64,000 bases of DNA from an uncultured bacterium (GCA_946636615.1 CAMPBE010000003.1:15928-79927); one strand, 5' to 3'. Shown: positions 31,602 through 40,936, counted from the stretch's first letter. Translations and numbers: made by a program. Notes: generated from the sequence alone by a model not told the origin.

Positions 31602-31678
31602 GGCGGGTGTCGTCAAGTGGTTAAGACCACGGATTGTGGTTCCGTTATGCGTGGGTTCGAATCCCACCACCCGCCCCA
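31602..31678 (+). tRNA. tRNA-His (GTG) with encoded G-1 and CCA
   Basis: Hand fold. G-1 is at 31602. The acceptor GCGGGTG pairs with CACCCGC. The anticodon arm is ACGGA-TTGTGGT-TCCGT with anticodon GTG. The T arm is GTGGG-TTCGAAT-CCCAC. Discriminator C is followed by CCA. Confidence 0.9.
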
Positions 31679-31680
31679 CT

Positions 31681-31712
31681 AAAAAGCAGATAACAAAAGT
31701 TATCTGCTTTTT
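31681..31712 (+). terminator. Intrinsic terminator after tRNA-His
   Basis: AAAAAGCAGATAAC-AAAA-GTTATCTGCTTTTT. Confidence 0.8.
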
Positions 31713-31735
31713 AGTTTGAGATGTTGTGAAATTCT

Positions 31736-31886
31736 GAGAACCCAACAGGCCGACAGGTCTGTCTGTGGTTCGAGCGGATTTTTTGCAGAGTGCGGAGTGC
31801 TTTTGCAAAGTGATGTAAATCACGTCGGCAAAACACGTAGACACGTTTAACGCAAAAAATCCAAGACAATCCCACCACCCGCCCCA
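31736..31886 (+). ncRNA. tRNA-His-tail element A (candidate structured small RNA or att-site relic)
   Basis: A 151-nt unit that ends in a 19-nt exact copy of the tRNA-His 3' end, AATCCCACCACCCGCCCCA (31868-31886 matches 31660-31678). It has internal hairpins and is followed by its own terminator. It is a near-duplicate of element B. Confidence 0.5.
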
Positions 31887-31896
31887 TAATAAAAAT

Positions 31897-31922
31897 AAGC
31901 ACCCTTTTGGGTGCGTTTTTTA
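31897..31922 (+). terminator. Intrinsic terminator after element A
   Basis: GCACCC-TTTT-GGGTGC followed by a T-run. Confidence 0.75.
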
Positions 31923-31938
31923 TTTGTGTAGTTGGGAT

Positions 31939-32090
31939 GAGAACCTTACCAAGCGAAGCTTGGTCTGGGTTCGAGCGAGGAGCGAGCAGAGGCTGGAGTG
32001 CTTTTGCAATGTGATGTAAATCACGACGGCAAAACACGTAGACACGTTTAACGCAAAAAAATCCAAGACAATCCAACCACTCGCTCCCCA
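31939..32090 (+). ncRNA. tRNA-His-tail element B (diverged tandem copy of element A)
   Basis: A 152-nt unit with the same module order as A. Its ~77-nt core differs from A only by 2 substitutions and 1 A-run indel. It ends in the degenerate tRNA-like tail AATCCAACCACTCGCTCCCCA. Confidence 0.5.
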
Positions 32091-32102
32091 TTTAAAGAGT
32101 CT

Positions 32103-32121
32103 GACTCTTCGGGGTCTTTTT
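32103..32121 (+). terminator. Intrinsic terminator after element B
   Basis: GACTC-TTCG-GGGTC (UUCG tetraloop) followed by TTTTT. Confidence 0.75.
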
Positions 32122-32395
32122 ATTAGGAACGATAAGGATTTTCAGAATTAGTGCCTTTTAACAGGACATTTGGTCGGATGTGGTAAAGATTTGAGTTGCT
32201 AAAGTTGCTAATTTTAGTAAACATTAGCGATTTTGTTTGGTCGGAAGTTGATTGATTTAAAATGTCAGAAATGTCCGATTGCGGTAACAAAAATGCCCGA
32301 TATTTTACTCTTTTTGTCCTAATATTTGCACTCCTAAGTATTGTTGGGTTGCCCAACCTACAATCTATTCACTACAGGTTGCAGTTTTGCGCAAG

Positions 32396-33415
32396 TTATA
32401 ATATGGGTGGAATATACCCATTATTTACAAGATAAAATTTGTTAATATTCTTAGGATAAATCTTTCCGCCCATTATTCCTGAAAAATATTCAGCCATAAA
32501 TTCATCTAAGCTATATGAATACAATGAAACATTTTCAGGTATTTGTATATCTTTTGCAATTTTTTGATATTTGCTTGTATCACCAATTAATGTTGAACCT
32601 GCACCCACATTATTAAGAGTGTGACCAACTTCATGATATATAATTCCATCAATAGTTGGATTTGCGAGATATCCTTTTTCTTCTTGTACAATTTTAAATA
32701 TATCATCAGAATAAATTACATATCTGTCTTTTAAAGCTTTATTTACTATTGCCTCGTTCATTTCATCTTCTAATGTATATCTTACCTTAGGAAATTCCCG
32801 CACTCCTTTTTGGTGCATATTTTTAAAAGCAGTATAAATGTTTTGTGAAATTTTTTCATGATCAGTTAAGCGTGCATCAATGCCCAATTCTGCAAGTTTA
32901 TTTTCTATATCTATTACTTTTGGATTTGTTGATTTAGGGAATATTATATCGTCAAAAACACTAACAAATTTTGCACGAGCACTATTACCTATTTCGCCAT
33001 ACTTATCAAGAAGTTCTTTTGTTGTATTTAAAGGATCTACACCTTCATTTCTTCTTAAATATTCAGGCCATGAGCTTTTTATGTCATAAAATAGTTTACG
33101 TATTTCATCTTGTTCTACTGCGGTAAATTTTTGCTCTCTAATGGAATATAATAATTCTTCTTCGGATTTGTTTAAATATTTTCTTAATTTTGGATTTTCT
33201 TTTGCTATAAATTGCAATAAATTATCTTTTTTAAATATTTCAATATTTTTTTCAAGTTTTGTTACAAAAGGAACGACATTATTTAGTTTAGAATCATACT
33301 TTATGTTTTTAATATTTGGAATTACTTTTTGTGGTTTGGCGCAGAAGAGCAGACTTTTGCAGAGTTTTCCCCCACGCTCAACCATAAAATTAAAAGCAAC
33401 TTTTTGTAATCCCAT
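32396..33415 (-). CDS. Hypothetical protein with an HExxH zinc-metalloprotease motif
   Basis: 339-aa ORF containing IIYHEVGHTL and a downstream DEFMAEYFSG, a possible third-ligand Glu. No family was recognised. Confidence 0.6.
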   Translation of the reverse strand: MGLQKVAFNFMVERGGKLCKSLLFCAKPQKVIPNIKNIKYDSKLNNVVPFVTKLEKNIEIFKKDNLLQFIAKENPKLRKYLNKSEEELLYSIREQKFTAVEQDEIRKLFYDIKSSWPEYLRRNEGVDPLNTTKELLDKYGEIGNSARAKFVSVFDDIIFPKSTNPKVIDIENKLAELGIDARLTDHEKISQNIYTAFKNMHQKGVREFPKVRYTLEDEMNEAIVNKALKDRYVIYSDDIFKIVQEEKGYLANPTIDGIIYHEVGHTLNNVGAGSTLIGDTSKYQKIAKDIQIPENVSLYSYSLDEFMAEYFSGIMGGKIYPKNINKFYLVNNGYIPPIL

Positions 33416-33568
33416 AGCAATATTTTCCCCTGTGTATATTTATATAAAATATTTTTTTTTTCAGAAATTGCTTAATTGTGACATAGTATGAAAGAATTGT
33501 TACAAATTAACTTTACCAAAAAGTGTAAACTATCTGTATAACGAAACCATATTATCTGTCATTTTAAA

Positions 33569-33614
33569 GAGAACCCAACAGACCGACAGGTCTGTCTGTG
33601 GTTCGAGCGGATTT
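33569..33614 (+). repeat. Solo copy of the 46-nt 5' module of element A
   Basis: GAGAACCCAACAGACCGACAGGTCTGTCTGTGGTTCGAGCGGATTT matches 31736-31781 with one difference, G to A at a stem position. Confidence 0.85.
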
Positions 33615-40483: not shown

Positions 40484-40936
40484 ATGGATAGAAAAATTGT
40501 AACTACTAACAGAAAAGCGTTTCACGACTACAATATTATTGAAAAATATGTAGCCGGAATTGTTTTGACAGGTACTGAAATAAAATCTATTCGTAAAAAT
40601 GCTATTAATCTTAAAGATAGTTTTTGCAAAATTGAGGATGGCGAAATCTTTTTATATAATTGTCATATTTCTCCTTACGAGCAAGGAAATAGGTTTAATC
40701 ATGCAGCCGAAAGAATTAGAAAGCTTTTATTAACAAAAAAAGAAATTTTAAAGATGCATACAAAGGTTAAGCAGGATAATTATACAATTGTACCGCTCGA
40801 GGTTTTCTTATCTCATGGGTTTGCAAAAATTGAAATTGCGTTAGCAAAAGGTAAAAAAATACACGACAAGCGTGATGATATTACCAAAAAAGACCAAAAA
40901 AGAGAAATGGACAGAGCATCTAAAATAAGGTATTAA
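40484..40936 (+). CDS. smpB: SsrA-binding protein SmpB
   Basis: 150-aa ORF with NRKAFHDY.I.....AGIVLTGTEIKSIR and a basic C-terminal tail. Confidence 0.95.
   Translation: MDRKIVTTNRKAFHDYNIIEKYVAGIVLTGTEIKSIRKNAINLKDSFCKIEDGEIFLYNCHISPYEQGNRFNHAAERIRKLLLTKKEILKMHTKVKQDNYTIVPLEVFLSHGFAKIEIALAKGKKIHDKRDDITKKDQKREMDRASKIRY

Follow-up and report, generated by a model that had tools for sequence, protein, structure and literature searches.

What are the two similar elements that follow the tRNA-His gene in a 64,000-nucleotide stretch of DNA from an uncultured bacterium (CAMPBE010000003.1:15928-79927 of assembly GCA_946636615.1; hereafter the window, meaning the whole stretch), and why does each end in a copy of the 3' end of that tRNA? 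The order found 3' of the gene is a terminator (T1), element A (31736-31886), a second terminator (T2), element B (31939-32090), and a third terminator (T3). An earlier description made from the DNA sequence by itself (the sequence-only reading) took A and B for members of a small RNA family that mimics the tail of a tRNA. The explanation we favor, although tentatively and with somewhat less than even confidence, is that A and B belong to two tandemly accreted copies of a miniature, protein-less, tRNA-gene-specific integrative unit of gut Melainabacteria. Such a unit, ~205 bp long, would consist of the tRNA 3' end duplicated from T-loop position A58 onward, its own terminator, a short spacer, a hairpin module ending in xGGTTCGA, and a ~95-nt imperfect palindrome that we designate the rod. 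Each unit would have entered tRNA-His within its 3' part, made the gene whole again with the 3'-end copy that it brought, and pushed the earlier 3' end and terminator downstream. Given such restoration by each inserted unit, the tRNA tail found after each rod would be a target-site direct repeat of the attL/attR type.

The tRNA-His(GTG) gene lies at 31603-31678 on the plus strand, as do all of the features described in this paragraph and the next. It is called by ARAGORN, scores 61.8 bits against the Rfam tRNA model, has G-1 encoded at 31602 and CCA encoded at its end, and is the only RNA to reach the Rfam threshold within 64 kb. Its T-loop, GGGTTCGA, is at 31652-31659. Read as an insertion, unit A (31660-31867, 208 bp) would begin immediately after the T-loop and comprise the replacement tRNA 3' end, T1, a spacer, a 5' hairpin module, and rod A, while unit B (31868-32069, 202 bp) would comprise the next tRNA 3'-end copy, T2, a spacer, a 5' module, and rod B. 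T1 (31681-31713), an AT-rich hairpin visible as the inverted repeat GCAGATAAC-AAAA-GTTATCTGC followed by a T run, is matched in Rfam at E up to 10 by hairpin-type models only. T2 (31899-31914), which resembles the native tRNA-His terminator of a related locus, L023, and T3 (about 32103-32121) were both found by the terminator scan, so that A and B do have separate terminators behind them, as had been described. The 5' module of A (31736-31773) pairs GAGAACC with GGTTC around the nested hairpin CAGGCC-GACA-GGTCTG in the minimum-free-energy fold, and finishes with GTTCGA, which duplicates the left half of the T arm. The T-arm-like GGTTCGA that had been listed as following the hairpin is thus present but is not separate from it; because GAGAACC pairs with GGTTC, it lies within the 5' hairpin. 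The 5' module of B is at 31939-31974, and an ATG upstream of it has no counterpart in A. The 94 nt of rod A (31774-31867), GCGG...CAAGAC, make up a conserved imperfect palindrome, which comprises a basal helix (P1), a second helix (P2), and an apical hairpin and scores 114.7 bits against the family model introduced below; rod B (31975-32069), a mosaic with a broken P1 helix, scores 79.7 bits. From GGAGTGC on, the cores of A and B are two substitutions and one extra A apart.

These repeats are far beyond chance, and the elements are where they had been placed, with the sequences that had been given. The 19-nt sequence AATCCCACCACCCGCCCCA has exactly two occurrences in the window, at 31660 and at 31868, and the core 27-mer GGCAAAACACGTAGACACGTTTAACGC is likewise present twice; 0 occurrences are expected by chance in either case. 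The copy behind rod A (31868-31886) is exact, with 0 mismatches, and under the insertion reading is to be counted as the first part of unit B; the copy behind rod B (32070-32090) is degenerate. The three tails start at 31660, 31868, and 32070, with start-to-start spacings of 208 and 202 bp.

Relatives without the units show what the site looks like when unoccupied. In loci L040 and L041, where RpaB is 92% identical to that of the window and the tRNA-His 3' end is the same, the gene continues directly into TTTAAAGAATTTGACCCTTCGGGGTCTTTTTCATTAGGAATGATAAGGG..., without an inserted unit. The native tRNA-His end, terminator, and flank of L040 align at 78/97 positions with window 32070-32160, that is, with the tail of B, T3, and the sequence beyond. 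Because L040 joins tRNA-His directly to this same sequence, the tail and terminator of B are the native tRNA-His end, displaced by 410 bp of inserted DNA, and on the alignment to L040 we annotate 32070-32150 as the displaced original 3' end, T3, and the native flank ATTAGGAACGATAAGGATTTTCAGAATTAG. As in cis-mobilizable elements (CIMEs), direct repeats of the tRNA 3' part flank the insert, the tRNA-His gene itself is intact according to both ARAGORN and Rfam, and relatives have the unoccupied site. On these comparative grounds the insertion of units into tRNA-His can be taken as shown. The unit itself, moreover, has a homolog elsewhere: unit A agrees at 180/244 positions with its L038 counterpart 3' of tRNA-His, across terminator (the T1 hairpin included), spacer, module, and rod, and the ~205-bp unit is by this comparison a coherent entity.

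Are these units peculiar to one gene in one organism? A search of the genomes of 185,579 species for one exact core 20-mer gave 11 matches, ten of them in metagenome-assembled genomes of gut Melainabacteria/Gastranaerophilales and one a chance match; the 20-mer is also present in three metagenome contigs, one of which is from the window's own organism, itself a gut melainabacterium. Outside the window, the core is thus known from about 12 loci of this lineage. One extra, divergent copy, in L038, was reached by way of RpaB and flavodoxin homolog contexts. The family alignment and the counts given here are based on 14 distinct core copies, and the scan with the family model covered 405 kb of locus DNA. 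Copies stand just 3' of tRNA-His in L001, L003, L008, L020, and L038, and other copies are found at tRNA-Asp (L004), tRNA-Gly-CCC (L006), tRNA-Leu-TAG (L010 and L011), and tRNA-Arg-TCT (L005), which answers the question of whether the element occurs at other tRNA genes. In each tRNA-linked copy, 3-4 nt of the T-stem 5' strand of its own tRNA plus GTTCGA stand before the ~95-nt core (GCGR...CAAGAC), and A and the remaining 3' end of that same tRNA come after it. The core therefore has the position of T-loop 58/59, with a 1-nt overlap relative to the uninterrupted tRNA sequence, and the 5' modules at the other loci track the T-stem of the adjoining tRNA in the same way. Even between species with nothing in common in their terminators and spacers, the core is almost identical. 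In our comparison, then, the A/B-type element is shown to be a real, conserved family associated with five tRNA species.

Copy number is low. There are two copies per 64 kb in the window, both at tRNA-His, one or two per related locus, and none further in the 405 kb scanned. L005 and L020 likewise have tandem or accreted arrays, where cargo that lacks an integrase lies between the units or behind them. In L020 the same terminator precedes both copies, which are separated by 3.3 kb of cargo. The two tandem units of L005 belong to different subfamilies; the divergent one (L005 112-277), which the family model missed, has a hairpin module, GTTCG-GCGG, the basal helix GGATTTCC/GGAAATCC, CCAAGAGA, and a tRNA-Arg tail, and differs in its interior. 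The units hold no conserved open reading frame (ORF). A peptide product was considered for the elements; the 126-aa minus-strand ORF at 31711-32091 belongs to no Pfam family.

The tails bear directly on the proposal of tRNA-tail mimicry. The repeat stops at the discriminator, and CCA is confined to the His and Asp copies, where the tRNA gene encodes it; the Gly, Leu, and Arg copies lack it. Since CCA occurs in the tail only where the gene encodes it, the tail is copied from the gene and not from mature tRNA; for the same reason we rejected a primer-binding site and a mimic of mature tRNA as candidates. The tails differ from the adjoining tRNA at one to several positions, gathering mismatches as the core does not; one copy (L019) lacks tRNA flanks altogether, and the tail of B is a displaced native end. 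What had been read as mimicry is, on this evidence, a DNA-level copy of whichever tRNA gene adjoins. The elements also have no acceptor 5' strand, D arm, or anticodon arm, and fall within no tRNA, tmRNA, or Rfam family: ARAGORN finds tRNA-His only, with no tmRNA or permuted tmRNA, and Rfam finds only the tRNA at gathering score and only hairpin-type chance matches at E up to 10. The earlier failure to place the element in any known RNA family is thus borne out, and we found no description of it in Rfam or in a literature search.

Why should a 95-nt sequence be kept so nearly constant? The core folds as a single long irregular hairpin, consisting of P1, a middle section, P2, and a variable apical hairpin, and it is the pairing rather than the sequence of the arms that is retained. 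The middle section has invariant internal loops, GAGTGC-G-GAGTGC opposite ACACGT-AG-ACACGT. P1 occurs in four versions unrelated in sequence: GGATTTTTTGC/GCAAAAAATCC, the private long-range complement of A, paired at 11/11 positions; GACCTGTGAGC/GCGAACAGGTC; GAGGAGCGAGC/GCGAGCGACTC, with tandem G·A pairs; and TTGTCGGC/GCCGACAA. P2 is GCTTTTGC/GCAAAAC and becomes GGCTTTTGGC/GCCAAAACC in L038, while the apical hairpin has at least four sequence versions, with a GGAG loop instead in L019, so that P2 and the apical hairpin covary as well as P1. In the alignment of the 14 distinct copies, paired cells amount to 84%, and 10/24 pairs have changed on both sides, against 4.5±1.1 in shuffles (reached in 0/500). 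When partners were slid by one to three columns as a second control, three or fewer pairs had changed on both sides. The folds of A and B are more stable than those of all of 200 shuffles (z = -4.0 and z = -3.8, respectively). The 5' hairpin, too, keeps its pairing while its 3' arm follows the tRNA, with GAACCC/GGGTTC at His and GAACT/AGTTC at Gly. Because both-side changes far exceed those in the shuffles and in the slid control, the rod is under selection for pairing, and selection on a single-stranded fold of the rod is well supported by these comparisons. The compensatory change that the sequence-only reading looked to homologs for was thus found, and its central suspicion, selection on structure, survives.

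Two details of that reading fared differently. The private complement of B, GGAGCGAG/CTCGCTCC, is as real as that of A and is used in the minimum-free-energy fold of B. The paired substitutions A31809/T31825 in A and T32010/A32026 in B, which had been taken for complementary changes, fail as such, relatives with the same GTGAT hairpin having A and A. Copies B and L002 are mosaics. In rod B the 5' arm of P1 comes from one version and the 3' arm from another, which breaks the basal helix. An 8-bp pairing of rod with tail in B, arising from two C-to-T changes in the decaying tail, is suggestive of compensation, as a single case.

Could the elements nevertheless be plain decaying attL/attR scars of integrase-bearing islands, with complementarity arising by chance? 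The locus would invite this explanation, since it is full of scars. Among strains with identical RpaB, the DNA 3' of tRNA-His is wholly different, and the islands found there include a prophage with a large serine recombinase, two further serine-recombinase islands, a Lamassu-type defense island, and an SDR/HxlR island bounded by a decayed T-arm-plus-tail scar. By this comparison of strains, we consider it proven that the tRNA-His site is an integration hot spot. The decaying, displaced tRNA end that forms the tail of B also speaks for scar formation. Against it stand a core nearly identical across species with unlike terminators and spacers, the presence of the same core at five different tRNAs, and compensatory changes far above both controls. 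Because of the covariation we exclude plain scar decay, which we rate as extremely improbable, and here we agree with the sequence-only reading.

The large serine recombinases of these prophages and islands (genes at L029 10791-12323, L031 10807-12435, L032 10791-12317, and L040 3633-5321) were natural candidates as makers of the repeats. Their ORFs run antisense through tRNA-His, and the integrated forms all end ...GIRTH(A/V)YRNHNPRS, behind NGA (...NGA-DGIRTH-YRNHNPRS), while free forms of the same recombinase family diverge right after NGA. From this split between free and integrated forms, the crossover lies at the extreme 3' end (CGCCCCA) and not in the T-loop, so that the T-loop-to-end repeats of the units were not made by these enzymes, and we rejected them in that role. 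Integration, as an observation of separate interest, gives the recombinase an altered C-terminus. A related candidate, the rod as a mini serine-recombinase island, was rejected by the dinucleotide rule: the identical central dinucleotide expected in attB, attL, and attR is missing, since the junctions GTTCGA|GCG and GAC|AATCC share 1 nt with GTTCGAATCC.

The main rival to an integrative unit is an RNA gene. In this version, which we think doubtful, the 5' hairpin, the rod, a ~20-nt 3' segment, and the terminator form a structured small RNA, and the 3' segment is a guide to the tRNA top strand 3' of GTTCGA. The layout would then match TnpB/Cas12-type scaffolds, in which the guide is 3' and the target-adjacent motif (TAM) 5', and the RNA would serve a trans-encoded effector that homes to or regulates tRNA loci; in a variant, the RNA is antisense to recombinase mRNAs reading into the tRNA. 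In the circular or transfer form, the order of module, rod, tail, and terminator has the look of a compact transcription unit, and an intrinsic plus-strand terminator stands behind most copies. The G·U and tandem G·A pairs lie on the plus strand, which is the sense strand of the tRNA, and favor folding of that strand; free helices with invariant internal loops are as found in protein-bound RNA scaffolds; and the serine-recombinase ORFs, antisense through the tRNA, are complementary to the tail. The terminators, however, are accounted for by the insertion history, and the copies in L001, L005, and L038 lack one. Promoter-like sites are at the shuffled expectation (7 found, 6.9 expected), no conserved promoter precedes the module, and the spacers there have no common -35/-10 pattern. 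The tails have mismatches at positions 6-13, which a guide would not tolerate. The left flank is GTTCGA in 13 copies and AGAAAA in L019, so there is no common TAM, and no TnpB, Cas12k, or IS110-type gene was found near any copy or in the window ORFs scanned, nor any match in Rfam. Two specific forms were tried and set aside: a TnpB omega-RNA or IS200-IS605 PATE, since there is no tnpB or tnpA near the copies or in the window, the left flank is not constant, and there is a single central hairpin, and a homing guide of a type V-K CRISPR-associated transposon (CAST), since no tnsB, tnsC, tniQ, or cas12k is found beside the rod-bearing elements.

The L019 copy raises another alternative. Its rod has no tRNA-derived flanks; it sits within the palindromic sequence AAAAGT-G-ACTTTT, and its right flank is homologous to non-coding island sequence that is uninterrupted in L023. 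The rod might then be an independent selfish palindromic insertion, comparable to a miniature inverted-repeat transposable element (MITE), REPIN, or PATE, that enters the centers of short palindromes such as T-arm DNA and survives only in non-essential T-arm copies at repeated tRNA-flank-unit junctions, with module and tail as pre-existing flanks. We consider this unlikely, although several observations fit it. The rod stands exactly between A58 and the next T-arm base, with no target duplication, and the mosaics B and L002 indicate that rod parts recombine. The native motif GTTTTCAGGGTTCGA is found ~81 bp 3' of the T-loop in loci with neither rod nor island, even where a housekeeping gene lies directly behind, and the units' 5' modules share homology with this motif (20/27 positions are identical in L001, counted by eye). 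The uninterrupted junction that would be the presumed target, module-GGGTTCGA-AATCC-tail, was, however, seen in no locus. The copy number is low and tRNA-bound, variable arms at the ends with an invariant interior are the reverse of transposase-recognized inverted repeats, the linkage of terminator and rod is conserved across species, and the L019 junction is unclean, with 11 nt missing relative to L023. REPINs and MITEs usually have many dispersed copies per genome, conserved terminal repeats, and often a target duplication; here we find no target duplication and, in the DNA scanned, only tRNA-linked copies.

The integrative units that we favor would be immobile by themselves and would depend on a recombinase supplied from another locus. 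The rod and the T-arm halves on its two sides would, by analogy, be a cis-acting folded-strand site for a recombinase or mobilization protein, working like an integron attC, a CTX phage attP hairpin, or an oriT hairpin, and the invariant GAGTGC-G-GAGTGC and ACACGT-AG-ACACGT would be two putative protein-binding boxes. Several results weigh against this explanation. The partner enzyme is elusive: no copy is linked to an integrase, among the 14 copies or in the 405 kb scanned, no recombinase able to make a repeat from the T-loop to the 3' end was found near any copy, and the window ORFs of at least 150 aa that were scanned are housekeeping genes or belong to no Pfam family, with no recombinase or transposase among them. 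We found no full-length parent element with a rod in it, and an intact integrase-bearing relative, named in the sequence-only reading as a refuting case, was likewise absent from the DNA examined. The serine recombinases that do act at tRNA-His cross at CGCCCCA and leave the 19-21-nt repeats unexplained, and with the rod as the insert, the 1-nt overlap of rod and tRNA agrees neither with the 2 bp of a serine-recombinase crossover nor with the 6-8 bp of a tyrosine-recombinase one. By its sequence, the crossover appears to lie somewhere inside the 19-nt repeat, where no single position can be read. Either strand of the rod may be the one that folds, as RNA or as single-stranded DNA, the data being compatible with each. 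Finally, the rod of L019, in its non-tRNA context, suggests that the rod may move or recombine independently of the unit. Other searches were similarly silent: ORFs scanned beside the rods of L004, L011, L019, and L020 included no recombinase or transposase, BLAST against phages returned nothing, BLAST against plasmids matched 32 nt of terminator only, and three scans of viral contigs gave no matches or chance matches in a phage coding region.

How do the units compare with known systems? Genomic islands classically land at tRNA genes, and the scars at such genes are usually regarded as inert. Integron attC and the CTX phage attP(+) hairpin are folded single-strand recombination sites, and the rod resembles them as an imperfect palindrome of ~60-150 nt with conserved pairing, much free sequence, and conserved mismatched boxes, and also in its association with arrays of gene cassettes without their own recombinase. 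It differs in lacking R''/R' core sites (RYYYAAC/GTTRRRY) and an IntI or dif context, in having a variable hairpin base and an invariant middle, in a repeat boundary that lies outside the hairpin, and in that its recombination is a prediction. An integron attC in the strict sense was rejected, the module base GAGAAC...GTTCGAG being off the R'' (RYYYAAC) and R' (GTTRRRY) consensus and no IntI being found among the window ORFs scanned. Homing CRISPR RNAs of type V-K CAST reportedly have tRNA genes as targets. With these and with TnpB omega-RNA the elements share a structured scaffold with, behind it, ~20 nt that are identical to DNA beside a short conserved motif, the tRNA gene as target, and a host that is a cyanobacterial relative, but they have no tnpB, cas12k, tnsB, or tnsC beside the copies, mismatched tails, no shared left-flank motif in L019, and no sequence or Rfam similarity. 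REPINs, MITEs, and PATEs are likewise protein-less hairpins of ~100 nt inserted without target duplication; the rod differs in its low copy number, its tie to tRNA, its variable ends and invariant interior, and its lack of a GTAG head, and a separate family of real REP-like hairpins is found nearby.

Closest in organization are the CIMEs, which are cis-mobilizable elements with tandem accretion at the 3' ends of tRNA or other genes (PMC5704250), and the tycheposon remnants with partial tRNAs described in Prochlorococcus islands (bioRxiv 10.1101/2020.12.28.424599). There, as here, there is no integrase, direct repeats of the tRNA 3' end form the bounds, newer arrivals push older ones away from the tRNA, and small cargo islands and partial tRNAs accumulate. 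The units described here differ in being only ~205 bp long, without gene remnants, in having a covarying ~95-nt palindrome exactly between the T-arm halves, and in using one core for five tRNA targets. A tRNA-linked integrative remnant or structured att-type site of only ~205 bp, with a conserved, covarying hairpin between the T-arm halves, would be unusual, and we take this to be what is new.

A more ambitious interpretation, which we consider quite unlikely, is that the rod and T-arm halves, as single-stranded DNA or RNA, are a retargetable module that presents both halves of the T-loop site to a trans-acting enzyme, for protein-less cassettes and integrase-less cargo at the T-loop of any tRNA; this would be an integron-like or RNA-guided cassette system of Melainabacteria. 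What calls for explanation in any case is a ~95-nt compensatory hairpin, nearly unchanged across species and five tRNA targets, in units too small to encode anything. If the rod is a site or guide for a trans-acting system, it would account for the build-up of integrase-less defense and toxin-antitoxin islands behind tRNAs in this uncultured gut lineage, and might offer an insertion module that is both compact and retargetable. Were the rod no more than a parasite of att sites, it would still be a new class of site-specific palindromic element. Either reading gives a testable handle on genome plasticity in Melainabacteria.

The DNA beyond element B has several further features. A small accessory island of ~1.4 kb (32151-33568), containing one ORF and non-coding repeats, is bracketed by a remnant of the GTTTTCAGGGTTCGA motif (32121-32150) and a solo module (33569-33614), and its flanks are one continuous sequence in L023; the island thus sits in the native GTTCGA motif 3' of tRNA-His. 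The island's only gene, on the minus strand at 32396-33415, encodes 339 aa with an HEVGH metalloprotease-like motif and belongs to no Pfam family. The solo module (plus strand) consists of the 5' module of A and the first 8 nt of the rod, is identical at 45/46 nt with a perfect nested hairpin, and has flanks homologous to sequence in L028 and L038. The conserved flavodoxin promoter region follows it directly; the module lies ~1.7 kb beyond A and forms with 31736-31781 a direct repeat around 1.8 kb.

A second xGGGTTCGA motif follows the T-loop GGGTTCGA at ~81 bp in L024, L027, L028, L030, and L031, at 84 bp in L023, and at 105 bp in L032. The ~55 nt between T-loop and second motif, which include the terminator, are fully different among strains with identical RpaB, and divergence begins again right after the motif. 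In these alignments, the second motif behaves like a second recombination site.

A non-coding module recurs in the cargo islands (window 32160-32370; L011 937-1010 and 1760-1930; L023 4470-4640 and 5920-5980; L028 12560-12900). It consists of GGTCGGAAGT, a REP-like hairpin headed by GTAG (GTAGGTTGGGC...GCCCAAC), and TTGCAC repeats in runs, spaced ~10-11 bp in iteron-like fashion, and is repeated before each cargo gene. Another species has a Tn7/Mu-like transposon upstream of the flavodoxin gene (L034 and L035, 1-2387), with a TnsB-like protein (rve, Mu-transpos_C), a TniB/TnsC-like ATPase, and a 414-aa protein with a weak helix-turn-helix match; no rod is associated with it. The repeats GGTCGGAAGT and TGTCCG were considered as the ends of the L034 transposon and rejected, being absent from it. 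An SmpB gene is present in the window at 40484-40936, and ARAGORN found no tmRNA gene anywhere in the 64 kb. In L041 (3470-3700) and L042, the intact gene is closely preceded by one or two tandem repeats of ~106 bp, each starting with a duplicate of the tRNA-His 5' portion (GGCGAATGTCGTCAAGCGATAG...), and these repeats suggest integration on the 5' side as well.

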